From Candidatus Zambryskibacteria bacterium RIFCSPHIGHO2_01_FULL_43_25 (GTDB taxonomy: Bacteria > Patescibacteriota > Minisyncoccia > Phycocordibacterales > Zambryskibacteraceae): 59,238 nt of DNA. The DNA is taken from assembly GCA_001823695.1 (NCBI GenBank), contig MHVD01000017.1, positions 1 to 59,238 on the forward strand, read 5' to 3'. The stretch's first letter is position 1. Each line of letters begins with the position of its first letter. Below, piece after piece: positions 7,122-57,511 of this stretch. The position numbers were made by a program, and so were the translations under genes. The notes under the pieces are model-generated. The model was not told where the DNA came from. It worked only from the letters and a program-made list of their open reading frames with translations, and searched no databases.

Positions 7122-7163
7122 ACTTCAATTACTGATTTAAACCAAAATCAACAACGACTCCAA

Positions 7164-7205
7164 AACGACTCCAAACTTCCGCTATAGCGGAAGTTTGGAG
7201 TCGTT
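7164..7205. repeat. 42-bp perfect palindrome, core CCGCTATAGCGG
   Basis: aacgactccaaacttccgc-tata-gcggaagtttggagtcgtt, preceded by a direct copy of part of the left arm. Confidence 0.9.
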
Positions 7206-7263
7206 GTTATTTTTGAGGGCTCTAGTTAGACATTTTTTAATGTTTTTATCACCTTTTTATACC

Positions 7264-7311
7264 TCTATATACGCTACAATTAAGCGATCGCCTAATTGTA
7301 GCGTATATAGA
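7264..7311. repeat. 48-bp near-perfect palindrome between convergent pgk and HIT
   Basis: tctatatacgctacaatta ... taattgtagcgtatataga, 19-bp perfect arms. Confidence 0.9.
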
Positions 7312-7321
7312 AATGGTGCAA

Positions 7322-7735
7322 TTACATCAACTCCTTCCTTATTTTTTGTGCCAGATCTCCGATTTTTTCCTTAGGCGGGTTATTTACAATAGTTTGCATT
7401 ATTCCCCCGCCGTCATTTGCCCACCTTGGAATCAAGTGTATATGCAGATGACGGATTCCTTTTTTTTCTAAATGGTTAATACCTATGGTTATCGAGTCAC
7501 AAGAAAGCACTTTTTCGAGACTGATGGAGGTTTTTCTTACAGTCGTCATTATCTCCCCGAGTTCTTTTTTACTGTAATCTATTACTGATTCCCCATGTCT
7601 TTTGTGTACTACCATTAGATGTCCGGGGGCAGACGGTTTGATTTCTAAGAAAGCGAAAGTGTTCCCATCCTCATAAACTTTATGAGAAGGTATTTCGCTC
7701 TTTATTATTTTGCAAAATACACATTTATCGTCCAT
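7322..7735 (-). CDS. HIT-family nucleotide hydrolase
   Basis: CVFCKII N-terminus and HLHIHLIP histidine triad; ATG at 7735 preferred over the track start at 7747. Confidence 0.92.
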   Translation of the reverse strand: MDDKCVFCKIIKSEIPSHKVYEDGNTFAFLEIKPSAPGHLMVVHKRHGESVIDYSKKELGEIMTTVRKTSISLEKVLSCDSITIGINHLEKKGIRHLHIHLIPRWANDGGGIMQTIVNNPPKEKIGDLAQKIRKELM

Positions 7736-7862
7736 GACGGTTGGCACTTGTCCAGCTAGTTTTTGTTTTACTTATTTTTTAATAAAAACAATCTTTATTC
7801 AACTAAATTTTACCACTTTTTTCAACTATAAAAAATTCTAACGGGGTGGTACAATCTCCCTA

Positions 7863-9575
7863 ATGAAGAATAAAGATTACCGTCTACGCGACCCGATTGA
7901 CAAGTCCGCCGCCCTGGAACTTTCTTCTTTTTCTCCTCTAGTCCAAAAACTCCTTTTTTACAGGGAAATCCGAAATAATCAGTTGGCAACTGACTTTCTC
8001 CGTCCTGATTATGAGAAACATACCCACAATCCATTTCTTCTTAAAGATATGGAAAGGGCGATCTCCAGAATTCTTGAAGCCGTCAAACTTCAGGAGAAGA
8101 TTTTGATTTACAGCGATTATGATGCCGATGGCATACCGGGCGGGGTAATATTGCGTGAATTTTTTGACAAAATCGGACACCAAAATGTTGAAAACTATAT
8201 TCCGCATCGGAGCGCGGAGGGTTTCGGCTTAAATGAAGAAGCGGTAAAGCGTTTTAAGGATTCAGGAGTCAACTTAATTATTACCGTTGACTGCGGTACG
8301 GCTGATTCAGCCCACATTGATCTGGCGAATAGGCTTGGAATTGACGTGATAATCACCGACCATCACGAACCAAACGGACATATGCCGAACGCCTGTGCGA
8401 TAATCAACCCGAAACAAAAAGATTGCAATTACCCTGACAAAAATTTATGCGGTTCGGGAGTGGTATATAAGCTTGTTCAGGCGCTTGCATCGGTGGGCCA
8501 TCTGCCCTTCAAGCAAGGTCAGGAGAAGTGGTTTCTGGACCTGGTCGGGATGGCTACTATTTCGGATATGGTTCCTCTGATAGGTGAGAACAGGACACTG
8601 GCATATTACGGCCTTAGAGTTTTGAGGAAAACTCCTCGCGTGGGGCTCTTGAAACTCTTCAGGAAACTCTACATTTCCGAGCGCAATCTTACCGAGGATG
8701 ATGTTAGCTTCACCTTGGCGCCAAGGATAAACGCCGCGTCTCGCATGGACCAGCCGATGGATGCGTTTAAGCTTCTTATTACCAAGAATCTCTCGGAAGC
8801 CGATGCGGTTTCCAATCACTTAAACAAGATAAACGATGAACGAAAGGGCATAGTCGCGAACTTGATTAAGGAAATAAGACATATAGTAAATGAAAAAAGG
8901 GCATCAGTAGGAGAAAAAGAGGTAATAGTAGTCGGTAATCCCAAGTGGCGGCCGGCGCTTCTGGGGCTCGCGGCCAACGTATTGGTAGAAGACTTCAACC
9001 GGCCGGTATTTCTCTGGGGCAGAGACGGCGGAAGCATAAAAGGATCATGCCGCTCCGAAGGTGTGTCGAATATTTTGTCAATAATGAATGAGAGCAAAGA
9101 TTGTTTTTCAGAATTTGGGGGACACGAGTTTGCCGGGGGCTTCTCCATTGATAATGAAAAAGTGCATTTTCTTGAAGACCGACTAGTGGAGGCCTATAAA
9201 AAGGTGGGCAAAGAAGAAACCGAAAAAATAGAATGGGTTGATTCGCATCTTCATCCGGATGACGCAAACGAAAATCTCTGGAGAGAGCTTCGGGAGCTGG
9301 CGCCGTTTGGCGTAGGCAACTCAAAACCGCTTTTCTTGATGGAAAATGTTCCCGTGAAATCAGTCAGACAATTTGGCAAGGACAACAATCATCTGGAAAT
9401 TTCTATTCCCAACAGTTCCGGCATGGAAATGAAGGCGGTTGCTTTCTTCTCCAAACCCGACTCGTTTAAAATGCTTCCTGAACCGGGAGGGAAGATAAAT
9501 CTGGTCGCCCACTTGGAGAAAAGTTTTTTCCAAAACCGTCCGGAACTGCGCTTAAGGATTGTTGATATTGTTTGA
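7863..9575 (+). CDS. recJ: Single-stranded DNA exonuclease RecJ
   Basis: DYDADG, TVDCG, TDHH, TISDMVPL, PRINAASR and GGHEFAGG DHH/DHHA1 motifs. Confidence 0.96.
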   Translation: MKNKDYRLRDPIDKSAALELSSFSPLVQKLLFYREIRNNQLATDFLRPDYEKHTHNPFLLKDMERAISRILEAVKLQEKILIYSDYDADGIPGGVILREFFDKIGHQNVENYIPHRSAEGFGLNEEAVKRFKDSGVNLIITVDCGTADSAHIDLANRLGIDVIITDHHEPNGHMPNACAIINPKQKDCNYPDKNLCGSGVVYKLVQALASVGHLPFKQGQEKWFLDLVGMATISDMVPLIGENRTLAYYGLRVLRKTPRVGLLKLFRKLYISERNLTEDDVSFTLAPRINAASRMDQPMDAFKLLITKNLSEADAVSNHLNKINDERKGIVANLIKEIRHIVNEKRASVGEKEVIVVGNPKWRPALLGLAANVLVEDFNRPVFLWGRDGGSIKGSCRSEGVSNILSIMNESKDCFSEFGGHEFAGGFSIDNEKVHFLEDRLVEAYKKVGKEETEKIEWVDSHLHPDDANENLWRELRELAPFGVGNSKPLFLMENVPVKSVRQFGKDNNHLEISIPNSSGMEMKAVAFFSKPDSFKMLPEPGGKINLVAHLEKSFFQNRPELRLRIVDIV

Positions 9576-9578
9576 TGA

Positions 9579-9773
9579 ATCCCGTTAGAAATAGGAAATG
9601 CTCAATGGAACTGCTGTTAAATTCGAAATTATTGTATAGACCAAAAAAGAAGCTGAATATAAAATAAGAGCATAAGCATTTCCGTATTTAAACTGCTTGC
9701 AGGTATATAAATATAAACGAGTCGATGATACGAATTTTCATTACAATATCAACCAAGTGATTTTTAACGGGAT
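9579..9773. mobile_element. MITE-like non-coding element with 14-bp terminal inverted repeats
   Basis: atcccgttagaaat (9579) versus atttttaacgggat (9760), 13/14 inverted match; ATGAA occurs on both sides. Confidence 0.6.
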
Positions 9774-10518
9774 GAAAATCTTTACCGACGGCGCGTCGCG
9801 TGGCAATCCCGGCCCGGGAGGATGGGGGGCAATTGTAGTTTTTTCCTCTCGTAAAAACGATGAGAACCGAGAAGTTGTTGAACTTGGGGGAAGAGAGAAA
9901 AATACTACAAATAATAGAATGGAACTAGTCGCGCTTATTCAAGCACTCCAATTTGTAAAGAATCAAGAATCAGGAATAAAGAATAGGGAAATAAAAGTCT
10001 TTACTGACTCGGCTTATTTGTTGAATGGAGCAACAAGATGGCTTCAGTTGTGGGAAGAAAAAAATTGGAAAACAACAGGCAAAAAAGATGTTTTAAATAA
10101 AGACCTATGGAAGAAATTATTCAAACTGCTGAATAATTTTAATATTGAGTTTAAACTTCTTCTGGGCCATTCTGGAATTCCAGCAAACGAAAGATGTGAT
10201 GAGATTGCGACGGCATTTGCTGACCTGCCTGCGCAGGCAAGCGGCAAAAAGCCGAAACTCTATTCTGGTGTTCTTGAGAACTATGGAATAGATTTATCGG
10301 TTGCTTCTGTGCGACCGCAAGCCAAAAGCCGTAAGCTGAAGACTAAAAGCTCTCGCAAGCCGTATTCGTATGTAAGCGAAGTGAAAGGAATTGTCAAAGT
10401 GCATGAAACTTGGGCGGAATGCGAGAAGCGAGTCAAGGGCGTAAGCGGGGCCAGATTCAAAAAAGTGTTTAGCGGTGAAGAAGAGTCCGAGCTTGTCAAG
10501 CAATGGAGTATAGATTAG
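9772..10518 (+). CDS. rnhA: Ribonuclease HI with C-terminal hybrid-binding (Cauli_VI-like) domain
   Basis: FTDGASRGNPGPGGWG, TNNRMEL, TDSAY, GHSGIPANERCD; C-terminal HETWAECEKRVKGVSGARFKK. Start placed at ATG 9772. Confidence 0.93.
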   Translation: MKIFTDGASRGNPGPGGWGAIVVFSSRKNDENREVVELGGREKNTTNNRMELVALIQALQFVKNQESGIKNREIKVFTDSAYLLNGATRWLQLWEEKNWKTTGKKDVLNKDLWKKLFKLLNNFNIEFKLLLGHSGIPANERCDEIATAFADLPAQASGKKPKLYSGVLENYGIDLSVASVRPQAKSRKLKTKSSRKPYSYVSEVKGIVKVHETWAECEKRVKGVSGARFKKVFSGEEESELVKQWSID

Positions 10519-12026
10519 ACAAAGCCAAAATTATTTATTCAGCTCTTTTCGGATTTTTATTCGGCGTTGCCGCTGCCCCATTTCTTGGTGTTTCTATTTT
10601 TACCGCCCTGTGGTTTGCGCTTTTGGCGCTTATTTTAGGATTTTCATTGTTTGTTTTCTTGCCTTCCGAGCTCTCGCACTCTGTGTTTATAGTTATCTTC
10701 CTAATCGCGGCCGCTCTAGGAGTTGTGCGTTTCCAGGAGAAAGACACCGTTGCGCTCAACCCGGTGATTGAGCAGTCGGTCGGCGGCAAGGTGTCAATGA
10801 CCGGCGAGGTGGCCAACTATCCCGAAAGGCGGGAGAGCAATACCAGAATAATTCTCAAGCTGGAAGAGCGCGAGACTAGGGTGCTTGTCTGGGCGCCTCA
10901 TTACCCGGAGGTTTCCTACGGAGATTATCTGGAAGTTACCGGAACCTTGAAAAAACCGGAGATGTTTGCCACCGATGAGGGCGGTGTTTTCAACTATCCG
11001 GAGTATCTGGCCAAGGACGGGATATATTATGAGGTCAGTTTTGCCGATGTTGAAATTGTCGGCCACGGCGGCGGCAACAGAATAGTCTCTGCGCTTTTCG
11101 GCATAAGAAAATCTTTCTCCGAAGCTCTTGAAAGAGTGATAAAGGAGCCGGAATCTTCATTAGCGCGAGGCATTCTCTTGGGGGAGCGCAGCGGCTTGGG
11201 CGAGGAACTTGAAAATTCGTTCCGAACTTCGGGAATAGTTCATATCATCGTGCTCTCCGGATACAATATCGCAATCGTAGCCGCAGTCGTCTTGCGGTTT
11301 TTCTCTAAACTTCCCAAACGCGCCGCTCTTCTGCTCGCGGCAATCGGTATTGTTTTGTTTGCGGTAATGGTCGGCGGCGGCGCGACGGTCGCGCGGGCGA
11401 CCATCTTTGCGCTATTTGTCCTTTTGGCCAAAAGTCAGTACAGAAATGTGCATATCGGCCGGGCGTTGCTTCTCGTTGCCTCCCTAATGGTCGCCATAAA
11501 TCCGAAAATTATTTTCTACGACCCGTCTTTCCAGCTCTCTTTTCTGGCGACTGTCGGCCTAGTCTGGTTTTCGCCGAAAGTTCTGGGTAAATTAAGGTTT
11601 ATGAAAGGCAAATTGGAATTTCTCAAGGAAATAATAGGCACTACCATAGCGACTCAAATAATGGTCTTGCCATGGATACTCCATCTTACCGGCAATCTGC
11701 CGGTTTTCTCACTGCCGGTGAACGCCGTCGTTTTGCCTCTGATACCTTTTGTGATGCTCTCAAGCTTTGTGTCCGCTGTCTTGGGGCTGTTCTCGGCCTC
11801 TCTGGCCTTTCCGTTCGCCATTGTATCCCAGACGGTTCTGCAATTCGTAATCTTTGTCTCCAAAGAAGTTTCCCAGTTTGAATTTTCGGCAATATTATTC
11901 AAACCGTTTCCGATTTTTCTCACGGCCCTCATCTATGCGGTTATCTGGGCGCTTATGTATCGAGTAAATGTTCGGACGGCTATCTCAAAGTTTCTTTTAA
12001 ATTTTTCTCTACCACACTCCAGTTAA
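10503..12026 (+). CDS. comEC: ComEC/Rec2 competence membrane channel (DUF4131 + Competence domains)
   Basis: HIIVLSGYNI motif, SFQLSF motif, many TM helices. Confidence 0.92.
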   Translation: MEYRLDKAKIIYSALFGFLFGVAAAPFLGVSIFTALWFALLALILGFSLFVFLPSELSHSVFIVIFLIAAALGVVRFQEKDTVALNPVIEQSVGGKVSMTGEVANYPERRESNTRIILKLEERETRVLVWAPHYPEVSYGDYLEVTGTLKKPEMFATDEGGVFNYPEYLAKDGIYYEVSFADVEIVGHGGGNRIVSALFGIRKSFSEALERVIKEPESSLARGILLGERSGLGEELENSFRTSGIVHIIVLSGYNIAIVAAVVLRFFSKLPKRAALLLAAIGIVLFAVMVGGGATVARATIFALFVLLAKSQYRNVHIGRALLLVASLMVAINPKIIFYDPSFQLSFLATVGLVWFSPKVLGKLRFMKGKLEFLKEIIGTTIATQIMVLPWILHLTGNLPVFSLPVNAVVLPLIPFVMLSSFVSAVLGLFSASLAFPFAIVSQTVLQFVIFVSKEVSQFEFSAILFKPFPIFLTALIYAVIWALMYRVNVRTAISKFLLNFSLPHSS

Positions 12027-12035
12027 GATTCTCAA

Positions 12036-12079
12036 ACCCCAAAGCAAATCCGCCGGCCGGCGGATTGCTACGGGGCAAG
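12036..12079 (+). repeat. ACCCCAAA-hairpin-TACGGGGC repeat, copy 1
   Basis: accccaaagcaaatccgccggccggcggattgctacggggcaag; same architecture as 15934 and 24783. Confidence 0.8.
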
Positions 12080-12087
12080 GAAATCTT

Positions 12088-12681
12088 CTATTTTGTCGCT
12101 TCAGTAAAATTATTTTCTATCACAGACCAGTTCAGATTTGTGAAGAAGTCTTCAACATATTGTTTTTTTCCTGATGGCTGATAATCGGCGACATAAGAGT
12201 GCTCCCACATATCAATGGCCAAGACGGGAAACGTGCCTACCAAGTGTCCCAAGTGCTGTTCGTCCACCCATTGTGTCAGAAGTCTTTTGGTGTGTCTGTC
12301 ATAACAGAGCATTGCCCAGCCCACTCCGCGCGTCAGAGCAATTGATTTGAACATATTCATCCATTCATCAAAGTCACCCCACTCTTCTTCTATCGCTGTC
12401 CGCAGTTTGCTGTCTTCCGGAAGCGGCGCCGGGCCGTTCTCAAACTCGTCGAAATAATATTCGTGGTTTCGCATACCGCCCCACTCAAAGGAAAATCTTC
12501 TCTGAAGTTCTCCCAAAGCGTAAGCATTTTTCTCGGCATCCTTTTTATACTCGGAAATGGTATCCAATATCAGGTTGGCATTTTTCACATAACCGGCGTA
12601 GAGTTTCAGATGCTCTTCAATATTTCTCGCCGAAATGCCCTTAAGCGCCGGAATGTTAAACTTTCTTTCTTCAAATCTCAT
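12088..12681 (-). CDS. sod: Fe/Mn superoxide dismutase
   Basis: EEHLKLYAGYV, NHEYYF and DMWEHSY metal-ligand motifs. Confidence 0.92.
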   Translation of the reverse strand: MRFEERKFNIPALKGISARNIEEHLKLYAGYVKNANLILDTISEYKKDAEKNAYALGELQRRFSFEWGGMRNHEYYFDEFENGPAPLPEDSKLRTAIEEEWGDFDEWMNMFKSIALTRGVGWAMLCYDRHTKRLLTQWVDEQHLGHLVGTFPVLAIDMWEHSYVADYQPSGKKQYVEDFFTNLNWSVIENNFTEATK

Positions 12682-12750
12682 TTTATCTTTTTTATTTATT
12701 CTAATAGACTAATTATATCAGTCCCTGAAACTAATCGTATAATTTAAGAG

Positions 12751-13614
12751 ATGAAAGAGAAATTAAGCAAGATAAATCTGACCTTTGCCGCCATAGCGAT
12801 TCTTGTTATTGCGGATATCTTCGTCTGGTCTGCGGTATTTTCCGAGAAGCCGTCTGATTCGGCGTCTGTGAGCTTCTTTGACATTGGCCAGGGCGATTCA
12901 ATCTTTATTGAAGCTACGAACGGGAATCAAATCTTGGTAGACGGCGGTCCCGACGGCTCTGTTTTGCGCGAGCTTTCAGCGGCTATGCCTTTTTATGACC
13001 GTTTTATAGATGTGGTGGTGGCAACTCATCCGGACGCAGACCATATCGGTGGCTTGGTTGATGTGGTAGAGAGATACAGAATTGGCGCTTTTATTGAGCC
13101 CGGGGTTTCTTCCAACACTGCCTTTTATCAAGCTCTTAAGTCGGCGGTTGCCGACAAAAAAATTCCGACGTTTCTGGCTAGAAGAGGCATGTCAATTGAC
13201 CTTGGAGATGGCGGTTCACTTGTTATTCTCTTTCCGGATAGGGATGTTTCAGGTGTTGAAACAAATACTGCTTCCATAGTTGCCAAATTTCAGTTTGGAC
13301 AAAACAGCGTAATGCTAACAGGCGATTCACCGCAATCAATAGAAGAATATCTGGTTTCAATAAACGGAGAAAGACTGGCAAGCGATATTCTAAAGGTCGG
13401 ACATCACGGGTCGCGCACTTCTTCATCGGAGAGTTTTGTTTCCGCGGTTAACCCGCAGATGGCGATTATTTCTGCTGGCAAGGACAACCGATACGGCCAC
13501 CCTCACTCCGAGGTGATTGATTTGTTTAGCAAATTTTATATTGAAATGCTAAATACCGCAAAGGAGGGAACTATCGGTTTTGCCTTAAACGGAGCTTCTA
13601 TAATCAGAAAATAA
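12751..13614 (+). CDS. ComEC-associated metallo-beta-lactamase-fold nuclease (stand-alone)
   Basis: DIGQGDS, LVDGG, THPDADHIGG, LKVGHHGS and YGHPH motifs; N-terminal TM helix. Confidence 0.9.
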   Translation: MKEKLSKINLTFAAIAILVIADIFVWSAVFSEKPSDSASVSFFDIGQGDSIFIEATNGNQILVDGGPDGSVLRELSAAMPFYDRFIDVVVATHPDADHIGGLVDVVERYRIGAFIEPGVSSNTAFYQALKSAVADKKIPTFLARRGMSIDLGDGGSLVILFPDRDVSGVETNTASIVAKFQFGQNSVMLTGDSPQSIEEYLVSINGERLASDILKVGHHGSRTSSSESFVSAVNPQMAIISAGKDNRYGHPHSEVIDLFSKFYIEMLNTAKEGTIGFALNGASIIRK

Positions 13615-13656
13615 TCTCAAGTTGATGACTTTATTAAATTTAATAGATTATGGATT

Positions 13657-13698
13657 ACGCATATACCCCTTATTCGCACGAATAAGGGGTATATGCGT
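13657..13698. repeat. Palindrome with 20-bp perfect arms (CCCTTATTCG core family)
   Basis: acgcatataccccttattcg-ca-cgaataaggggtatatgcgt; related copy at 43286-43315. Confidence 0.9.
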
Positions 13699-13749
13699 TT
13701 CTAAATGTCGGACTTTTTTCTTTGTTTCTGACGGTTATGTGGGCGCAAA

Positions 13750-13992
13750 CTAAATAACACCTGCCTTTTTTAGCGTTATATACGCGCCTTTTTTCTGAAG
13801 AGTCTTGATTCCTTTTGTTGACAGAGTTACGACAACGAACTTTTTCAATTCAGGCACAAAGATTCGCTTCTTTTGAAGATTAGTATATTTTCTCTTTTTT
13901 CCGGTAGGGTTAAATTGCGTGGCGCGGGTTCTATTGCTGTAACCACCGCCCATCTTTGAACTTCTTTTTGTTACTGCGCAAATTCTAGCCAT
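13750..13992 (-). CDS. rpmB: 50S ribosomal protein L28
   Basis: MARICAVT...KRKYTNLQKKRIFVPE...LSTKGIKTL. Confidence 0.9.
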   Translation of the reverse strand: MARICAVTKRSSKMGGGYSNRTRATQFNPTGKKRKYTNLQKKRIFVPELKKFVVVTLSTKGIKTLQKKGAYITLKKAGVI

Positions 13993-14120
13993 GGCTGGTT
14001 TTCTTAATGAGTTAGGTGAGTTTTAAAAATTTATAGTCTCCATCAGTTGATGAATCCTTAATTTCAACGATACTATCACACAGTTAAACAGTTCGCAACT
14101 TTAGTGTTATATTTAAAACG

Positions 14121-14732
14121 ATGGGCATTGATTTCATATTCAATATCGTAATCCTCATACTCTCAGTGGTCGTGCATGAGGTCTCTCACGGTTACGCGGC
14201 GTACATTCAAGGTGACCCGACGGCTCACTATCAAGGCAGGCTTTCAGCAAATCCGCTAAAACATCTTGATCCTGTAGGATCTTTTCTAGTTCCTTTTGTT
14301 TCTTATATTCTCGGTGGCTTCATAATCGGCTGGGCCAAACCAGTTCCTTATAATCCGTATAACTTGAGGAATAGAAGGTGGGGTGAGGCCCTTGTTGCTG
14401 CCGCAGGACCTGCCGCCAATCTCATTATTGCAATCATCTTCAGTCTCATAATCAGATTTGGTCTTGGCTCCTTGCCCGAATCGTTCGTTCACATCGCAAG
14501 CGTAGTTGTCTTTATAAACATACTTTTGGCGTTTTTCAACCTAATGCCCATCCCACCGCTTGATGGTTCTAAGATTCTGTTTTCCATAATTCCCCAAGGG
14601 TTGAATATGGTCAGGTCTTTTCTGGAGAGAAATTCTCTCATATTTATAGTCATTTTTATCTTTCTGCTCTGGAGATTTTTGGTGCCAGTGGTCGTTCTCT
14701 TGTTTTCTTTGATGACGGGCCTGAACTTCTAG
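14121..14732 (+). CDS. Site-2 protease (M50 family)
   Basis: HEVSH zinc motif, AAAGP and FNLMPIPPLDG. Confidence 0.93.
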   Translation: MGIDFIFNIVILILSVVVHEVSHGYAAYIQGDPTAHYQGRLSANPLKHLDPVGSFLVPFVSYILGGFIIGWAKPVPYNPYNLRNRRWGEALVAAAGPAANLIIAIIFSLIIRFGLGSLPESFVHIASVVVFINILLAFFNLMPIPPLDGSKILFSIIPQGLNMVRSFLERNSLIFIVIFIFLLWRFLVPVVVLLFSLMTGLNF

Positions 14733-14742
14733 ATATAACAGC

Positions 14743-14771
14743 TTGCAAAAGAAGAAGCGGTGTATTAGAGT
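14743..14771 (+). promoter_or_regulatory. Sigma70-like promoter of the str operon
   Basis: TTGCAA-17 nt-TAGAGT upstream of the rpsL leader. Confidence 0.55.
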
Positions 14772-14945
14772 ATCAGCTGATTGCTTTGGGGCAATTTTCG
14801 TTTACCCTATTAAGTTTTTGGCCATTGTTTGGCGAAGCCAAATGCAGAGCGTAAGCCAGCTAGTTTAGGGTAAAAATGGAGGGAGTAATATCATGGTTAA
14901 CTTGGCTAGGTAATAGTTACTTAGTCAAAAACTTTGTAAGGGTAA

Positions 14946-15356
14946 ATGGCAACAATAAACCAGCTTGTTAGAAGAAAGAGAAAAAAGATAAGCCGAAAAT
15001 CAAAATCGACGGCACTTACGCGTGGTTTTAACACTATAAAAAATCGACCCGTCGCCTACTTTTCTCCGTTTAAGCGCGGTGTTTGCACTAAAGTTACAAC
15101 CAAGACTCCGAAAAAACCAAACTCTGCAATCAGGAAAATCGCTAGAGTTCGTCTGACAAACGGTACCGAAATAACCGCCTATATCCCCGGTATGGGGCAT
15201 GGCCTTCAGGAGCACTCTGTCGTTGTCGTTAAAGGCGGGAGAGTAAAGGATGTCGGACTGCGTTACTCCGTGGTTCGCGGCGTTCTTGATTCTACTGGCG
15301 TTGAAAATCGCAAAAAAGGCAGAAGCCAGTATGGGGCTAAAAGGCCAAAGTCGTAG
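14946..15356 (+). CDS. rpsL: 30S ribosomal protein S12
   Basis: [24 protein letters not shown]. Confidence 0.98.
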
Positions 15357-15414
15357 AAATTAGTGCTGGGTGGCGATTTTCTAAAATTCGCCTAGCTCAC
15401 TAAGAAAATCAGTT

Positions 15415-15882
15415 ATGAGAAGACCGGTAAAAAATAAACCAATAATAAATCCTGATTTGGTATATGACTCTGTCAAAGTTACCAAATTCACCAATTACAT
15501 AATGCTTAAAGGCAAGAAAAACACTGCCCGCAGAGTTGTCAATAACACTTTTAACATAATAAAGGAAAAATCAGGCGGTGAACCCCTTGAAGTCTTTGAA
15601 ACCGCGCTTAAAAATACCAGCCCTAATATGGAAGTCAGATCAAGAAGAGTTGGCGGCGCCAACTATCAGGTGCCCAGAGAAGTCAGACCCGAACGTCGTC
15701 AAGCTCTAGCTATGAAATGGATTATTGACGCCGCTCGTTCAAAAAAAGGAATGCCAATGGAGCAAAAACTTGCCGAGGAAATAATCTTGGCCTCAAAGAA
15801 TGAAGGTGAGGCGGTCAAGAAACGGGAGAATACCCACAAAATGGCAGAGGCCAACAAGGCTTTTGCTCATTTTGCTTGGTAA
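15415..15882 (+). CDS. rpsG: 30S ribosomal protein S7
   Basis: RRVGGANYQVP, MAEANKAFAHF. Confidence 0.98.
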   Translation: MRRPVKNKPIINPDLVYDSVKVTKFTNYIMLKGKKNTARRVVNNTFNIIKEKSGGEPLEVFETALKNTSPNMEVRSRRVGGANYQVPREVRPERRQALAMKWIIDAARSKKGMPMEQKLAEEIILASKNEGEAVKKRENTHKMAEANKAFAHFAW

Positions 15883-15891
15883 CTAGAAAAT

Positions 15892-15933
15892 ATGGAACGC
15901 GATTACCCTTTGGAGCGTGTTAGAAATTTCGGC
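15892..15933 (+). pseudogene. Duplicated 5' end of fusA (false start; the frame runs on to a stop at 16006-16008)
   Basis: Encodes [14 protein letters not shown] versus the real [14 protein letters not shown] at 16013. Confidence 0.88.
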
Positions 15934-15986
15934 ACCCCAAACAAAATAGCGGCCAGCAAGTGGCCTATTTTGTACGGGGCGAGAAG
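15934..15986 (+). repeat. ACCCCAAA-hairpin-TACGGGGCGAGAAG repeat, copy 2
   Basis: accccaa-acaaaatag..ctattttgt-acggggcgagaag immediately after the fusA false start. Confidence 0.85.
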
Positions 15987-16012
15987 GAGTGATTTTAATA
16001 TCTGGTAAGTAT

Positions 16013-18166
16013 ATGCAAAGAGACTATCCATTAGAGCGCGTTCGTAATTTCGGTATCATTGCCCATATTGATGCCGGCAAAACTACTACCTCCGAAAGAG
16101 TTTTGTATTACACTGGTTCTCAGCACAAAATCGGCGAAGTTCACGAAGGCGAGACAACGACCGACTGGATGGAACAGGAAAGGGAGAGAGGGATTACCAT
16201 CACTGCCGCCGCCGTAACATGTTTTTGGGCCCCGACATATCTTTCTGCGGACGAAAGAAGCAAAAAAGAAAATAAGCACCGGTTTAATATCATCGATACT
16301 CCGGGGCATATTGATTTTACTGTTGAAGTGAAGCGGTCGTTGCGAGTTCTTGACGGAGCCGTTGTTGTTTTTGACGGTGTCGCCGGTGTTGAACCGCAAT
16401 CAGAGACGAACTGGCGTTACGCCGAAGAGGCCAAAGTACCGAGAATTTGTTTTATAAACAAACTGGACAGAACTGGCGCCAGTTTTGAAAGATCGTTTAA
16501 ATCAATAATAGGAAGACTCTCTAAAAAAGCTGTCAAATTGCAAATTCCCATCGGTGAGGAAGATAAACACGGGGGAGTTGTTGATCTTTTGACGATGAAG
16601 GCTTATTACTTTGAAGGCGAGTTGGGTGATCAGGTAGTTGAAAAAGAAATTCCGGAAAATCTAAAAGCCGCCGCCGAAAAGTACAGAGCGGAACTTATAG
16701 AAAAAATAGTTGAGAATGATGAAGAGCTGACACACCGCTATCTGGACGGGAAAGAAATCGCCCTTGCGGATTTAAAACGAGTTTTGAGAAAAGCGACCAT
16801 AGACAACAGCATTTTCCCCGTAATGGCCGGTTCGGCCCTAAAGAACAAGGGGGTTCAATTGATTCTTGACGCTGTCGTGGATTACCTGCCGTCGCCACTA
16901 GACGTTCCTCCGGTTAAAGGAATAAATCCTAATACCGGAGAGGAAGTAGAGAGACACGCTTCCGACGAAGAGCCGTTTTCCGCTCTGGCTTTCAAATTAC
17001 AGGCCGACCCGTTCGTCGGTCAGCTTACTTTCTTCAGAGTCTATTCGGGCACGATTGAAGCGGGCAGTTATATCTATAATTCAACCACTGGAGAGAAAGA
17101 AAGATTGGGCAGAATTGTCAGACTTCAGGCAAATCACCGGGAAGAAGTAAAAAAGGTTTTTGCCGGCGAAATCGCTGCCGCCGTAGGACTCAAAAGCGCC
17201 AAAACCTCGCACACTTTTTGTGACGAAGATAATCCGATAATACTTGAAAAGATTAAATTCCCCGAACCGGTTATCTCTCTTCGCATTGAACCCAAGACAA
17301 AAGCCGACCAGGAGAAAATGGGCATGGCTCTCAAGCGTCTGTCGGACGAAGACCCGACATTTAAGATAAAGAGCGATTCCGAAACCGGCGAAACCGTGAT
17401 TATGGGCATGGGCGAGCTTCATTTGGAGATTCTTGTTGACCGGATGAAGAGAGAATTTAGCGTTCTGGCCGACGTCGGGAAACCGCAAGTTGCATACAAG
17501 GAAACCATTACAAGCGAGGCCGAAGTGGAAAATAAATACATCAAGCAAACCGGAGGAAAGGGCCAATACGGACACGTAAGAATCAAGATTAGGCCGATGC
17601 CGCAATACGACCCCAACGAAAAGATTCCTAAGAATACGCACAGGAAAGAAGGTTTTGAATTTATTGACTCAATCAAGGGCGGCGTGATTCCTCAAGAATT
17701 TATTCCGGCCGTAGAGAAGGGGGTATTTGAAAGCATGGAGCGTGGAGTTGTCGCCGGCTACAAGATGACCAATATTACCTGCGAACTGCTTTTCGGTTCT
17801 TACCACGATGTTGACTCTTCGGAAATTGCCTACAAAATAGCGGCCTCGCAGGCCTTTCAGGAAGCGGCCAAAAAAGCCAAGCCGGTGCTTCTTGAGCCAA
17901 TAATGAAAATAGAAGTCGTTGTACCGGAGAAATTTATGGGCGATATCACAGGAAACCTGAATTCCCGACGAGGACAAGTGGAAGGTATGGACGAAAGGGG
18001 AGAAATGAAAGTAATTGACGCCAAAGTGCCTCTGGCCGAAATGTTCGGGTATGTCACGCAACTGCGTTCTATGACCGAGGGCCGTGGCTCTTCCACAATG
18101 GAATTTGACCACTACGCGATTGTCCCTCCTAACGTAGCTTTGACGATCATTGAATCTCGGAAGTAG
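16013..18166 (+). CDS. fusA: Elongation factor G
   Basis: [23 protein letters not shown]; start at ATG 16013. Confidence 0.98.
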
Positions 18167-18197
18167 AGCGAGTCAGCAGGATTAAAAATTACCGTAT

Positions 18198-18219
18198 CTT
18201 GCCCCGTACGAAATCCGCC
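18198..18219 (-). repeat. Right half of the ACCCCAAA/TACGGGGC repeat, copy 3
   Basis: Reverse complement reads ggcggatttcgtacggggcaag. Confidence 0.6.
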
Positions 18220-18329
18220 GCCTACTGTTGGAATCTAGAATTAAGAATCTGGAATTAAGAATAACGAGAACCAACAGACAACCACCTGACTAGTCACGTC
18301 ATGTGGTTGTTTGTATGTATAAATACAAG

Positions 18330-18361
18330 CTATTTTCTAATTCGTACGAATTAGAAAATAG
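18330..18361. repeat. 32-bp perfect palindrome (AATTCGTACGAATT core)
   Basis: ctattttctaattcgtacgaattagaaaatag. Confidence 0.9.
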
Positions 18362-18531
18362 TTGTAAATATAAATATAGAAATAGTTGTTTTGGGTTGAC
18401 TTGTTGGCGTTTGATGTTGTATGGTCAAAGAGGAAGTACATTGATGTCATAGATGCGAAAGCCACGATTCTTGGTGAATCGCGGCAATCACCAAGCTACC
18501 CTTCGGGAGTAGCGCTACATAGGGGATTCCT

Positions 18532-19206
18532 ATGGGCAAAGAAGACAGGACAACTTTCGGACAGGCCAACCATGTGCTGACTTTGATAAGTCAGCACAAC
18601 CCAAGTGCCGCCGATCTGGACATTATCTGCGACGGCTATATCACCGACCTGGTGATGGCGGCAAAAGCGCGGACTCTTCCCGTGAGGGATAAGTTCAGAG
18701 AGGCGTGTGGCCTCGTGAAGCTGGCTCCCATTCCCCTCCCACCCCTCCTCATCCCGCGCGGCACCGTCACGGTGACGCTCAAGGAGCGCCACAATCCGGA
18801 CGAGTTCTACCGGACCCGTTCCGGCCTCTTCGTACAGCCGGACTTTCGGGCGGGAGTCATCGCGGAGGCGAATCCGTCTGAAGCGGGCGAGAGCTTCAAT
18901 CTTAAGTACGCAGACCTCGGTAGGGATGCCTCGGACAGTGAGATTGAAGAAGTGCTCGGCAAGAGCCACTTCTTCGGCGAGACGCAAGTCTGCGCCATCG
19001 TGGCAGACTTCATCGCCAAACAGCAAAACGGCGAGGACGGCACACTGCTCAACGGTGGACGTGCGAACCTTTTCTACACAGGCTCCTGCGTCGTGGACGT
19101 TCACTGGTATGCCGGCCGCGGGTGGCGCGTCGTTGTGTGGTCTCGCGGCGGCGACGAGTGGCGCGCCGGCCGCCGCGTCTTCTCTCCCGCCCCGAAGCAA
19201 GCGTAG
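18532..19206 (+). CDS. Orphan protein resembling CPR DGR target proteins (C-type-lectin-like C-terminus with variable region)
   Basis: GTLLNGGRANLFY..VVDVHW..GWRV..W....EWRAGRRVFS motif; only 5 A in 19091-19190; GC-rich, with an SD-like AGGGG upstream. Confidence 0.7.
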   Translation: MGKEDRTTFGQANHVLTLISQHNPSAADLDIICDGYITDLVMAAKARTLPVRDKFREACGLVKLAPIPLPPLLIPRGTVTVTLKERHNPDEFYRTRSGLFVQPDFRAGVIAEANPSEAGESFNLKYADLGRDASDSEIEEVLGKSHFFGETQVCAIVADFIAKQQNGEDGTLLNGGRANLFYTGSCVVDVHWYAGRGWRVVVWSRGGDEWRAGRRVFSPAPKQA

Positions 19207-19252
19207 CTTGCAACGGGGCAAGCAACTGCAACAGACATTAAGTAGCACACAG

Positions 19253-19284
19253 GGGGCGTCCGTCGGATGACGGACGCCCCTTTC
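19253..19284 (+). terminator. Intrinsic terminator after the orphan gene
   Basis: ggggcgtccgtc-ggat-gacggacgcccc 12-bp stem followed by ttt. Confidence 0.7.
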
Positions 19285-19485
19285 TGCTGGTCGTCATCTG
19301 GTTGAGTGCCAATACCTAGCGCCTGAGGCCTAAAACTAATTCAACCCATTGACCCCGTAGTAGAAAATGACATTGTGGATGGGCCACTGTGAGACAAATA
19401 TAGACAGCAAATATGGTATTGAAGTTACAGATTGAATTAATAAAACAATTTACTCAAAAGAGTGATGTCATTTTTCACTATGGGG

Positions 19486-19513
19486 TTGACTAAACCCAGA
19501 CATTTGCTACTAT
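19486..19513 (+). promoter_or_regulatory. Promoter candidate upstream of tuf
   Basis: TTGACT-16 nt-TACTAT with an extended TGn. Confidence 0.45.
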
Positions 19514-19728
19514 TGTTTCCATCGCATTTTTGTTTCCACTCCGTCTCGAATTTGCGGGACAGAGTGGGGCGGGCGTGTTTGCCTGTTGTCTCAATTCGCA
19601 CGAAGAGCCGAATTGCCACAAACGGTCAGACGGGCGTCTCTTTAGACGCAAAAGTTTATTAAGCTAAGTATTAGCTTCCTCAACAAAGCTTTTCTCGCGC
19701 GTTTCGTTGAGGCAGTTACAAAATTAAC

Positions 19729-20919
19729 ATGACAGTATTTGATCGTTCCAAGCCGCACATCAACGTAGGCACAATCGGCCACGTTGACCACGGCAAGACG
19801 ACCCTAACCGCGGCCATTCTGGGCGTTTTGAACCGCTCCGGCAAAAAGGCTGAAATAAAGGGCGTTGATGATATTGACAAGGCGCCGGAAGAAAAGGCGC
19901 GTGGCATTACCATTTCTCTGGCTCATATGGAATATGAGACGGACGCCAGGCACTACGCGCACATTGACGCTCCCGGCCATGCCGACTACATAAAGAATAT
20001 GATTACCGGCGCTGCCCAGATGGACGGCGCGATTCTCGTTGTCGCGGCAACCGACGGTGTGATGCCCCAGACCAGAGAGCATGTGCTTCTGGCGAAGCAA
20101 GTCGGCGTTCCGAAGATAATTGTCTTTCTCAACAAGTGCGATATGGTTCCTGATAAGGAGCTTATTGACTTGGTTGAAGAGGAAGTTCGCGACCTTCTTA
20201 ACAAGTATGAGTTTGACGGTGCCAATGTTCCGATAATCCACGGTTCAGCCCTCAAGGCGCTTGAATCGGGGGATGTCAACGATGAGTGGTCAAAGAAAAT
20301 TATTGAACTGACAAACGCGCTTGACACATATATCCCGATGCCGGTTAGAGATATGGATAAGCCATTTCTCATGCCCGTTGAAGACATATTCTCAATTGAA
20401 GGACGCGGAACTGTCGTTACTGGAAGAGTTGAGAGAGGAGTTGTCAAGGTTGGTGAGGAAGTTGAAGTTGTTGGTCTCAAGCCGACCCAGAAGACTACTG
20501 TTACCGGCGTTGAAATGTTCAAGAAATCTCTTGACCAGGCTCAAGCCGGAGACAATGCCGGAGTTCTAATCCGCGGTCTCAAAAAAGAAGATGTTACCAG
20601 AGGACAAGTTCTGGCAAAGCCGGGCTCTGTTACACCCCATACCGAATTTGAGTCCGAGGTTTACATTCTGAAAAAGGAGGAAGGCGGCCGCCACACCCCG
20701 TTCTTCACTGGTTATAAGCCGCAATTCTATCTTAGAACAACCGATGTTACCGGCGAAGTTACTCTCCCAGAAAAGGTTGAGATGGTTATGCCCGGCGACA
20801 CTGTCACCTTCAAAGTTAAGCTGGTTGCTCCTGTCGCGCTTGAAGCGCAACAGCGATTCGCCATCAGAGAGGGTGGCAAGACCGTTGGCGCCGGTGTTGT
20901 AACGAAAGTTGTCGCTTAA
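19729..20919 (+). CDS. tuf: Elongation factor Tu
   Basis: [36 protein letters not shown]. Confidence 0.99.
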
Positions 20920-24380: not shown

Positions 24381-24571
24381 GTAGCAGACCTCTACTTTCA
24401 GTAAGGTCGAACCTTGCTGAAATTGCGCTTGACGACAATGAAGCTCGCTCTTGAAGCGAGAAAACCCCAAACGCTCTAGTAGCAGACCTCTACCCAGAGG
24501 AAGACAGGGGTGTGCTACAGGTACACGCCAAGAGTGCATCCGGGTGCACCGTAGCAGACCTCTACCCAGAG
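24381..24571 (+). repeat. Three direct copies of GTAGCAGACCTCTAC interspersed with unique hairpins
   Basis: Copies at 24381, 24479 and 24551; copies 2 and 3 share 21 bp (adding CCAGAG). Confidence 0.9.
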
Positions 24572-24588
24572 AAAACCACAAGAAAGGA

Positions 24589-24621
24589 GCCGTCCGTGTA
24601 TTCTATACCGGCGGTTTTTTG
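24589..24621 (+). terminator. Intrinsic terminator inside the S10 operon
   Basis: gccgtc-c-gtgta/ttc/tatac-c-ggcggt stem followed by a T run. Confidence 0.7.
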
Positions 24622-24640
24622 TTACTTTTCTTGATTTGTA

Positions 24641-24667
24641 TTGACATTATGGGTCTTATTCTATAAT
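24641..24667 (+). promoter_or_regulatory. Internal promoter candidate upstream of rpsS
   Basis: TTGACA..TATAAT consensus hexamers, but the spacer is only 15 nt. Confidence 0.5.
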
Positions 24668-24756
24668 ATCTTTGCAAGCTCGAAGCGAGCTTTTTGTATT
24701 CTTGTTGGCTGTTTCTCTTTTAAGGAATTCAGAGCCAATGCCAAACAAGTAAGTCT

Positions 24757-24782
24757 ATGACTAGATCGTCACACAAAGGTCC
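24757..24782 (+). pseudogene. Duplicated 5' end of rpsS (false start; the frame runs on to a stop at 24856-24858)
   Basis: Encodes MTRSSHKGP versus the real MTRSSYKGP at 24868. Confidence 0.85.
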
Positions 24783-24827
24783 ACCCCAAACGAATCCGTC
24801 AGCCGGCGGATCGTACGGGGCGAGAAG
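24783..24827 (+). repeat. ACCCCAAA-hairpin-TACGGGGCGAGAAG repeat, copy 4
   Basis: accccaa-acgaatccg..cggatcgt-acggggcgagaag immediately after the rpsS false start. Confidence 0.85.
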
Positions 24828-24867
24828 TTGTAAAGCCGATCTAGGTGTGAATTTATAAGTAAAATCA

Positions 24868-25212
24868 ATGACACGATCATCTTACAAAGGTCCGTACGTT
24901 TACGACAGACTCCTCAAAAAGATTGAGGGGAGAAAACCCGACCAGGTTGGAGTTGTTAAAACCTGGGCGCGCGACAGCCAAATATCGCCGGAGATGGTTG
25001 GCTTTACCTTTGGCGTTCATAATGGACGCGAGCACTTGGAAGTTTTTATTACTGAAGACATGGTGGGCCACCGGCTTGGAGAGTTTTCTCCGACTCGAAA
25101 GTTTATTAAGCATGGAGGCAAGATGCAGAAGGAGATTGAACAGCAGAAGAAAGACTCGGAAATAGCCGCAGCTCAAGCCGCTAAGGCCACCACTGCGCCT
25201 CCGCAAAAATAA
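24868..25212 (+). CDS. rpsS: 30S ribosomal protein S19
   Basis: [32 protein letters not shown]. Confidence 0.98.
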
Positions 25213-47920: not shown

Positions 47921-48045
47921 ATTAGAATCTAGAATAAGGAATAGGGAATAAGGAATTAACCCGCCCGAACGACTGGCATCGTTCAGCCTGCCCGTACCGA
48001 ATTGGTACGTTCGGGCGGGTCGGGCAGGGAATTAAGAATAAAGAT
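47920..48045. repeat. Heptamer tract (AATnAGG-like) interrupted by two interleaved GC palindromes
   Basis: aatctag aataagg aataggg aataagg; acccgcccgaacg..cgttcgggcgggt and cctgcccg..cgggcagg. Confidence 0.75.
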
Positions 48046-56001: not shown

Positions 56002-56045
56002 AAACAACACATAAAATCCGCTATAGCGGATTTTATGTGTTGTTT
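56002..56045. repeat. 44-bp perfect palindrome, core CCGCTATAGCGG
   Basis: aaacaacacataaaatccgctatagcggattttatgtgttgttt. Confidence 0.9.
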
Positions 56046-56064
56046 TTGCTAATCCTCTAATTGA

Positions 56065-56969: not shown

Positions 56970-57019
56970 TTTTATCAGTATCTCCACTTTCCCGCTATAG
57001 CGGAAAAATGGGGATGTTT

Positions 57020-57511
57020 TCATCCCGGCGGGCAGGTTTTTAGGCCCTTTTTCTCCAGGTATTTCTGATGATATTCTTCGGCTCTGTAGAACTTCTGGGC
57101 CGGTAGAATGCCGGTAACTATTCTTTTGGGCTTATATGCGCCGGAATTTTGCAGTTCTTCTTTTGATTTTTTGGCCGTCTCCTCTTGTTCGGGAGTGTGG
57201 AAGAAAATGGCCGAAGCGTACTGGCTCCCGATATCGGGGCCTTGGCGATTAAGCTCGGTTGGGTCGTGGATCTTCCAGAAGGTCTCAAGGAGTTTTTCGT
57301 AAGTAATTTTTTGCGGGTCGTATTTTATATTTACCGCTTCAATATGGCCAGTTTTGTCTGTGCAAATCTTTTCGTATGTCGGGTTTTCGGTTGTCCCGCC
57401 TGTATAACCGACCTGTGTTTCCACGACTCCGGGTAATTCCGCAAACGCCGCCTCTACCCCCCAGAAACATCCGGCTCCAAATGTCGCTTGCTGTAACCCG
57501 TCCGGTTCCAT
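57020..57511 (-). CDS. msrA: Peptide-methionine (S)-S-oxide reductase
   Basis: [31 protein letters not shown]. Confidence 0.97.

Follow-up and report, generated by a model that had tools for sequence, protein, structure and literature searches.

The DNA analysed here, called the window throughout, is a stretch of 59,238 nucleotides from Candidatus Zambryskibacteria bacterium RIFCSPHIGHO2_01_FULL_43_25 (assembly GCA_001823695.1, contig MHVD01000017.1). Within it, the gene fusA, which encodes elongation factor G (EF-G), has two starts. The first copy of its N-terminal codons (T1) lies immediately downstream of rpsG and runs into a small hairpin module, after which a second copy (T2) opens the working gene. 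This is a real feature, and the module belongs to a new family of small elements in bacteria of the candidate phyla radiation (CPR). The features of the junction are the following.

15415..15882, + strand: rpsG (ribosomal protein S7, PF00177), with its stop codon at 15880-15882, 9 nt upstream of the false start
15892..15933, + strand: false start (T1), with its ATG at 15892, repeating fusA codons 1-14
15892..16008, + strand: false open reading frame (ORF) of 38 codons plus stop, running from T1 through the module to a stop at 16006-16008; a candidate translational relay
15935..15983, + strand: hairpin module, fusA copy, 49 nt, with the tail CGAG and a conserved extension AAG to 15986
15984..16012, + strand: spacer between the module and the true start; another contig, L010, parts from the window exactly at 15987
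16013..16054, + strand: T2, functional fusA codons 1-14, 31/42 nt identical to T1
16013..18166, + strand: fusA (EF-G), 717 aa from the ATG at 16013

In the fusA module, CCCC (15935-38) pairs with GGGG (15976-79) to form P1, inside which lie an AA/AC internal loop, P2 (ACAAAATAG/CTATTTTGT) and P3 (GGCCA-GCAAG-TGGCC, 15951-15965). The frame of the false ORF passes A-CCCCAAA (15935), crosses the hairpin, continues into TACGGGGCGAGAAG (to 15986) and stops 4 nt upstream of the true fusA ATG (16013), which lacks a good, suitably spaced Shine-Dalgarno sequence. T1 and T2 are 79 nt apart. The annotated fusA start varies by assembly (725 aa from the GTG at 15989 versus 717 aa), and gene callers give wrong or extended starts and spurious short ORFs at module sites.

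The rpsG-fusA junction is base-identical across nine independent assemblies from Rifle-aquifer and related samples. Moreover, in each of six public runs a single k=31 Logan contig covers 15884-16012 with 0 differences and no alternative joint. Misassembly is thus ruled out, and the doubled start stands as it had been described in an earlier, sequence-only reading of this region, which had asked for reads across the joint. The contig L010 (ENA ERZ28563557 scaffold_94692) carries rpsG, the false start and the module, followed by the upstream region of a LabA/NYN gene joined exactly after GAGAAG (15986). This type of junction was not found in the Logan contigs of the six runs, and L010 is either a rare rearrangement or a chimera; its departure point marks the right end of the module as a junction. 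We ruled out that the L010 tail represents a longer autonomous element with an NYN gene, since it corresponds to an ordinary LabA/NYN host gene found after rpsO in relatives.

T1 and T2 of fusA are identical at 31 of 42 nt and encode 13 identical residues out of 14. Nine codons are changed, as the sequence-only reading had counted, but only eight of these changes are synonymous, the remaining one (GAA/CAA) altering the residue; at the nucleotide level, 10 of the 11 differences are synonymous codon changes. Compared with orthologs from other Parcubacteria, each copy matches at 25-38 of 42 nt. The distance between the two copies is therefore like the distance of each to the orthologs, which bears out the earlier view that they are not a fresh duplication.

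Searching for the pattern CCCCAAA-N(10-40)-ACGGGG returned three matches in the window (12037, 15935 and 24784, all on the + strand) against 0.08 expected. These canonical sites lie at the 3' end of the superoxide dismutase (SOD) gene, the fusA 5' end and the rpsS 5' end. We analysed 20 copies, four from the window and 16 from other genomes (15 labelled CPR, and one metagenome-assembled genome (MAG) labelled Planctomycetia, L106). The module reads CCCC-AA-P2-P3-AC-GGGG-CRAG, is 33-52 nt long and is polar. All 20 copies share a common fold, with a CCCC/GGGG clamp, a 2x2 internal loop of AA versus AC, a P2 stem opening with an A-T pair, usually one bulged A, a P3 hairpin free in sequence and length, and a 3' tail CRAG. 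P2 covaries among these copies (pair 2 is GC in 14 and CG in 6; pair 3 is CG in 7, GC in 9, AT in 3 and TG in 1). The consensus of the 3' side is (C)TACGGGGCRAG, without a U-tract, and no module matched Rfam 15 at E values up to 5. With its conserved CCCC/GGGG clamp, AA/AC loop and covarying stem, the module is a candidate binding site for a CPR protein.

The pattern was also scanned in one genome per species, where most matches are chance matches and counts per taxon are not quantitative. Among the matches listed, perfect hairpins occur in at least ~18 cases in CPR genomes (Nomurabacteria, Nealsonbacteria, Andersenbacteria, Paceibacterota and Saccharibacteria), and one further case is the MAG labelled Planctomycetia (L106); module-like copies are thus nearly confined to CPR among these matches. 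None of 27 pattern matches in IMG/VR was module-like, giving no sign of carriage by phages. In 470 kb of other Parcubacteria loci we found one copy only, the ortholog of a variant module at 19190. The 33-nt modules of a Nomurabacteria locus (L012, 4513-4545) and a Saccharibacteria locus (L033, 2213-2245), both in frame within ORFs, read CCCCAAACCAAAGCAAGCTTGGTACGGGGC[A/G]AG and differ at a single position, the R of CRAG. Because the module is found in sense, in antisense and within ORFs, a role at the DNA level or on both strands would be likelier than a single RNA role.

Duplicated gene ends accompany many of these modules. Copies were oriented with CCCC on the left, and the left 90 nt were compared with the right 300 nt at the protein level, with mismatched pairs as the null. 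A flank duplicate above the null maximum was detected in 10 of the 20 copies (scores 33-73 versus at most 32), the fusA flanks scoring 73 against that maximum of 32. Three further duplicates, in dnaJ, rpmB and a tRNA gene (a 14/14 nt repeat), were recognised by eye. The target genes, assigned by Pfam or motif, are fusA, rpsS (twice), rpmB, leuS, dnaJ, tatD, rpiB, a transketolase subunit, SOD, a PaaX-like regulator and tRNA-Lys. Whether a 5' or a 3' end is concerned, the extra fragment always adjoins CCCC, and the working gene is found beyond CRAG.

The duplicated flanks are 14-57 nt long, gene-specific and diverged. A shared core is present at the junction of fusA (AATTTCGG), rpsS (ACAAAGGTCC) and the tRNA gene (14/14 nt); the tatD, rpiB, rpmB and leuS copies share just 2-3 nt there. 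A weak N-terminal duplicate in a HIT gene (score 34), without a module, was set aside.

Pooled over ten pairs, the proportion of synonymous differences (pS) is 0.86 and that of nonsynonymous differences (pN) is 0.14, giving a pN/pS of 0.16. Among codon pairs that encode the same residue, 34 of 78 are identical, compared with 29.6 +/- 4.1 expected for two independent encodings. Judged by these codon comparisons, both copies were under selection at the protein level while their synonymous sites became saturated, which agrees with the earlier claim that they evolved under selection in different lineages. Active recoding that over-disperses synonymous sites is ruled out, codon identity being at the saturation expectation. 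Saturation under protein-level selection also excludes in-place decay of a duplication. The tandem layout of the fusA starts would suit a local duplication that diverged where it stands, or an assembly artefact; decay of an untranslated copy would mostly change amino acids, contrary to the synonymous excess at fusA and in the pooled loci, and the nine assemblies and six runs agree on the junction, so that we consider this explanation very improbable.

The SOD locus offers a clean empty site, as the corresponding region of the nearest relative is free of the insert. This relative is represented by two syntenic contigs of one sample, L219 and L220, and has none of the three canonical copies; its SOD is 93% identical in protein, and DNA identity is ~95% over window positions 7800-14000. 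The features at SOD are listed below.

11980..12036, - strand: displaced native SOD 3' end (FENLNWSVVEKNLKETLR and stop), T1, 50/57 nt identical to the functional end in L220
12037..12079, + strand: hairpin module, SOD copy, 43 nt, recognised by fold and pattern
12037..12145, no strand given: insert of ~108 nt, consisting of the module, then GAAATCTT (8 nt), then the reverse complement of the new SOD C-terminus and stop; absent in L220
12088..12147, - strand: T2 of SOD, the functional foreign-type C-terminus (FFTNLNWSVIENNFTEATK and stop), ~67% nt identical to T1

The SOD gene is on the minus strand, the module lies just past its 3' end, and the far flank encodes a second SOD C-terminus. L220 reads ...GTTGAAGACTT directly followed by TTTTCAGAATCTTAACTGG...TAG at this position, where the window holds ~108 nt more. 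The displaced SOD end overlaps the end of comEC by 47 nt (11980-12026) in convergent orientation, as in L220. It should be noted that the last 15 comEC codons are encoded opposite the displaced fragment, which constrains its decay. Most differences between this fragment and L220 alter an amino acid, in keeping with a sequence that has lost its function. These observations show that, at SOD, the native end is the displaced fragment and that the module and the new end form one insert. The new tail (NFTEATK and stop) resembles the SODs of distant Parcubacteria. The best amino-acid match considered as its donor, P0249 (L221), was rejected, being just 70% identical in DNA and lacking the module. 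The proposal that a small element and a replacement gene end entered together is thus shown at SOD; it is not shown at fusA, where the nearest relative is equally close to both copies (see below).

The rpsS locus carries the third canonical copy, with the following features.

24757..24783, + strand: T1 of rpsS, the false start MTRSSHKGP, abutting the module
24757-24858, + strand: rpsS false ORF, which stops 9 nt before the true ATG
24784..24824, + strand: hairpin module, rpsS copy, 41 nt, with a conserved extension AAG to 24827
24868..25212, + strand: rpsS (S19), with T2 at 24868-24894 (MTRSSYKGP)

At a Nomurabacteria locus (L067), the module stands after the same rpsS codon. We ruled out that T1 and T2 have lineage-specific residues in common, as S19 N-termini of both the MTRSSH and the MTRSSY type are widespread. 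The rplB-rpsS spacer is ~530 nt long and holds three copies of GTAGCAGACCTCTAC. It also contains a 156-nt promoter cassette (24550-24705), with a perfect TTGACA-17-TATAAT promoter and two hairpins, which is 98% identical in L219 within an operon of ~72% identity and looks recently exchanged or mobile.

Beyond what the sequence-only reading had described, the module proved to be an exact small insertion unit that also occurs in frame inside ORFs. All six copies without a duplicate lie inside long ORFs, and their lengths from CCCC to CRAG (33, 33, 33, 36, 33 and 39 nt) are all multiples of three; one of these in-frame copies is in an ORF of at least 1100 aa resembling rpoB. Of the copies that do have a duplicate, in contrast, most have lengths not divisible by three. 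A second finding that goes beyond the earlier reading is that, in five copies, gene homology restarts straight after the module, namely in SOD (GAAGATTTC), rpiB (8/8), dnaJ (7/9), tatD (FNAF, with synonymous changes) and tRNA-Lys (CAGCT). No such restart was seen in the essential-gene copies at fusA, rpsS (twice), rpmB and leuS.

These observations bear on a two-step origin in situ, in which a bare module would first break the gene end and a foreign or duplicated end would later restore the ORF. The homology restarts speak for this order, all five genes being plausibly dispensable, as does the existence of simple in-frame module insertions. Nevertheless, the inner arm is missing at fusA, rpsS (twice), rpmB and leuS, and a frame break after fusA codon 14 would be lethal before the rescue arrived. 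Moreover, L220 lacks both parts at SOD, where one event is more parsimonious. As a general account, we find this order unlikely.

The spacing of the stop codons suggests that translation is relayed across the module. In seven of the nine 5'-end cases, the false ORF crosses the whole module, and its stop falls in the interval from 15 nt upstream of the true start to 7 nt within the gene (P about 1e-5 under a composition null); two of these cases are ATGA overlaps. Such recurrent spacing, together with the false ORF ending 4 nt before the true fusA ATG, could also be expected if the extra start and hairpin were a regulatory device of the host, that is, a leader peptide or attenuator for fusA. 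Furthermore, with the T-run behind it, the inner hairpin of the fusA copy receives a terminator-like score. The distribution largely refutes this explanation, which we regard as improbable: among 53 Parcubacteria relatives with a recognisable fusA start, none has the module or a second RDYPL motif, and the nearest relative has an unrelated gene at this place. The same module also occurs antisense at the SOD 3' end and inside ORFs, its consensus has no U-tract and no Rfam match, and a leader peptide would not need a copy of the EF-G N-terminus. The comparison of relatives proposed in the sequence-only reading thus yielded empty sites rather than the shared arrangement of a conserved leader.

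Another possibility is that the segment is removed or skipped at the level of RNA or ribosome, as a mini-intron or by programmed bypass, T1 being the real N-terminus (MQRDY...). Indeed, the residue encoded just ahead of the module is also the one that closes T2 (Gly, GGC/GGT, at fusA; Pro, CCA/CCG, at rpsS), which recalls take-off and landing pairs. T2 would in that case be free to degenerate, but it has kept its ATG and the conserved start sequence intact; the 3'-end and tRNA copies cannot work by skipping, and no ribozyme or intron family match was obtained. We therefore give hardly any credence to this mechanism.

The surroundings of fusA are mosaic when compared with L220 (over 7150-19900). 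Identity is ~95% over 7800-14000, with patches of 48-66% at 7400-7800 and 9600-10200, then falls to 72-80% over 14100-18000 and rises to 91-99% over 18000-18600. These blocks look like recombination tracts with diverged lineages, and the alignment as a whole would show that such exchange has been frequent. The 14.1-18.0 kb block comprises an M50 protease gene, rpsL, rpsG and most of fusA; given that it is 72-80% identical to the relative while its flanks are 91-99% identical, one of the two genomes has replaced about 4 kb. In the relative, a 122-aa gene of the 23S_rRNA_IVP family (PF05635) is located between rpsG and fusA (L220, reverse complement, 9757-10191), flanked by AT-rich repeats, and many other relatives have 0.3-1.7 kb inserted at the same junction, which appears to be an insertion hotspot.

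Taken together, we propose that the doubled fusA start belongs to a family of cassettes that replace gene ends and centre on a polar hairpin module, a reading to which we assign a probability of about 0.55. In this scheme the module would insert into coding sequence, where in-frame copies, with lengths that are multiples of three, would persist as peptide insertions, whereas those that break the frame near a gene end would survive only if the ORF is restored by another copy of that end. At fusA, T1 (15892-15933) would be the old start, still coupled to rpsG, and another Parcubacteria lineage would have supplied the working start, together with module and spacer and possibly with much more of fusA. 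Entry would have occurred by recombination guided by conserved gene-end homology, with DNA uptake as the most likely preceding step. In essential genes, a single event would be required, or the import of a ready composite through flanking homology; for dispensable genes, two steps (insertion, then rescue) would be possible. As the spacing suggests, ribosomes coming from rpsG would initiate at T1 and translate the module, which has no stop codon in this frame, before terminating 4 nt short of the true ATG and initiating there anew.

The route put forward earlier, homology-anchored illegitimate recombination during transformation, is plausible. The genes on which that suggestion was based are indeed present, as comEC occupies 10503-12026 and type IV pilus genes lie in or adjoin the window; the genome also has recJ.

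The polarity of the fusA event deserves a closer examination. T1 stands 9 nt after rpsG, which is the position of fusA in relatives with a tight rpsG-fusA junction. We favour T1 as the old fusA start because of this native-like distance and by analogy with SOD, and on these grounds the proposed polarity is somewhat the better supported. The reverse is conceivable and we hold it to be a possible, rather doubtful explanation: the working fusA start and its spacer would be resident, and a foreign start with the module would have been inserted just upstream. The tandem arrangement is formally symmetrical, and the window and L010 diverge exactly at the CRAG-AAG end of the module, so that this end is a junction as well. 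In rpsS of L219, furthermore, the shared 156-nt promoter cassette is directly followed by 30 nt like the spacer before the working start of the window (~22/30 by eye; local-alignment shuffle p 0.13). On the other side, SOD, the sole clean empty site, shows the opposite order, its CCCC-side copy being native (50/57 nt) and keeping the ancestral comEC overlap; at fusA, T1 keeps its native-like 9-nt coupling to rpsG; and a donor in the reverse polarity would need the module inside its own essential gene.

Several observations weigh against the replacement cassette. Neither a donor with the same module beside the same gene nor a recombinase or transposase linked to the module was found; the REP-associated tyrosine transposase (RAYT; REP, repetitive extragenic palindrome) encoded nearby has a different palindrome. 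The restart of homology after the module in five copies fits a bare insertion followed by a separate rescue. At fusA, codons 1-14 of the nearest relative are as close to T1 as to T2 (34/42 in both comparisons), with the likeness to T1 in codons 8-14 (20/21) and that to T2 in codons 3-7. As the whole 14.1-18.0 kb block is divergent, the composite may have reached this lineage ready-made, by inheritance or import, instead of arising in it. At rpsS, no resemblance to the native upstream region of L219 is seen ahead of the false start, and the polarity evidence there would weakly fit the reverse order.

A broader and more tentative extension is that these inserts are CPR-wide, enzyme-less mini-cassettes that perform a kind of homing with rescue. 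After DNA uptake, the module plus a foreign gene end would use that end as a homology guide into the same gene; essential genes (fusA, rpsS, rpmB and leuS) would be kept working by the spare end and the relay, and the recipient's own end would be left as a fossil. If true, an insertion of ~110 nt, selfish or neutral, would live in the ends of essential, highly conserved genes and leave them unharmed by virtue of a spare, differently encoded end. It would also provide a dated marker of DNA exchange in CPR bacteria, in which the displaced end records the recipient and the working end the donor.

Two further module-related features were noted downstream of fusA.

18198..18222, - strand: half module (TACGGGGCAAG and one hairpin arm), 31 nt after the fusA stop; common to L220
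19190..19222, + strand: variant module CCCCGAA...AACGGGGCAAG, at the end of a high-GC ORF (18532-19206); ortholog in L220

Both lie in a 1.56-kb insert between fusA and tuf (18167-19728). The ORF at 18532-19206 encodes 224 aa, has a GC content of 55-63% against 46% for the window, ends inside the variant module and is conserved in L220; it has no Pfam or NCBIfam match. A family of AT-rich repeats (TTGGAATCTAGAATTAAGAATCTGGAATTAAGAAT) is found at 9950-9998, 18228-18262 and 47922-47956, beside insertion-prone spots. A whole-fusA cassette between two inverted modules, with a displaced 3' end, is unsupported, since the supposed 3' copy (LLESRIK) sits in this AT-rich repeat family. Finally, long palindromes centred on CCGCTATAGCGG at gene ends (7163-7208, 56002-56047 and 56976-57021) look like terminators.

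We know of no described element family with a recoded spare copy of a gene end, and nothing relevant was found in the literature on palindromic or MITE-like elements (MITE, miniature inverted-repeat transposable element) of CPR bacteria. Two known types of feature can be set aside. The module is not an intrinsic terminator, as its consensus is devoid of a U-tract, copies are inside ORFs and only the fusA inner hairpin scores as such. A diversity-generating retroelement is likewise ruled out, because the third-position differences (C/A, G/A, T/C, C/T and G/T) run in both directions and there is no reverse transcriptase gene in the vicinity.

The attC sites of integrons end in the motifs RYYYAAC and GTTRRRY, compared with CCCCAAA and ACGGGGCRAG in the module. 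Both have conserved short ends, a variable hairpin, conserved unpaired bases and polarity. The difference is that no integrase, attI or cassette array is present here, and that module copies are scattered inside genes.

In being short, multi-copy and built on a conserved hairpin, the module is similar to MITEs, to REPs and bacterial interspersed mosaic elements (BIMEs) with their RAYTs, and to Rickettsia palindromic elements (RPEs) (reviewed in PMC10969869). Like RPEs, some module copies are in-frame insertions in protein genes (PMC10969869). Unlike MITEs, the module is a single hairpin, without terminal inverted repeats and target-site duplication or a constant short direct repeat in its flanks. 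No related autonomous insertion sequence with matching ends was found in 80 kb of this genome or 470 kb of relatives. Unlike REPs, its copies are inside genes and not extragenic. The reverse strand of the module reads CCCCGTA[G/C]-hairpin, which resembles the GTAG tetranucleotide of REPs. A RAYT-like gene (NF047646, E 2.5e-9) lies about 8 kb to the left of the window (L217:1627-2315), flanked by CAGCAAGGTTCGACCTTGCTG and not by the module; as its flanking palindrome is different, its involvement as the mobilising enzyme is unsupported. The CAGCAAGGTTCGACCTTGCTG palindrome forms a second, separate family, with one copy in frame inside the RAYT-like gene and another at 24399-24419 of the window, in the rplB-rpsS spacer.

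Homology-facilitated illegitimate recombination and the formation of merodiploids by transformation can, with one homologous anchor and one non-homologous join, place foreign DNA next to a conserved gene and yield partial duplications (PMC3240628, PMC3784515). They could create junctions of the kind described here, in a genome that has comEC, recJ, pilus genes and mosaic blocks. Nevertheless, the joins of such illegitimate recombination are scattered at microhomologies, whereas the module joins are always at the exact end of one conserved hairpin, and the in-frame copies show that the module acts as an insertion unit by itself.

Replacement gene ends are also brought by phage 21 and e14 at the icd 3' end and by tRNA-targeting islands. 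SXT/R391 integrates in the 5' extremity of prfC, with an attP that carries the replacement gene end (PMC5812530). Integrative elements measure kilobases and have their own integrase, one fixed target and an identical core repeat, whereas the module inserts are ~110-125 nt long, carry no gene, have no consistent identical core and occupy both 5' and 3' ends of at least 11 genes; no integrase linked to the module was found among the genes in and beside the window. The likeness lies in the outcome: in both, an incoming, diverged end keeps the target functional, while the native end survives as a fragment at the far side of the insert.

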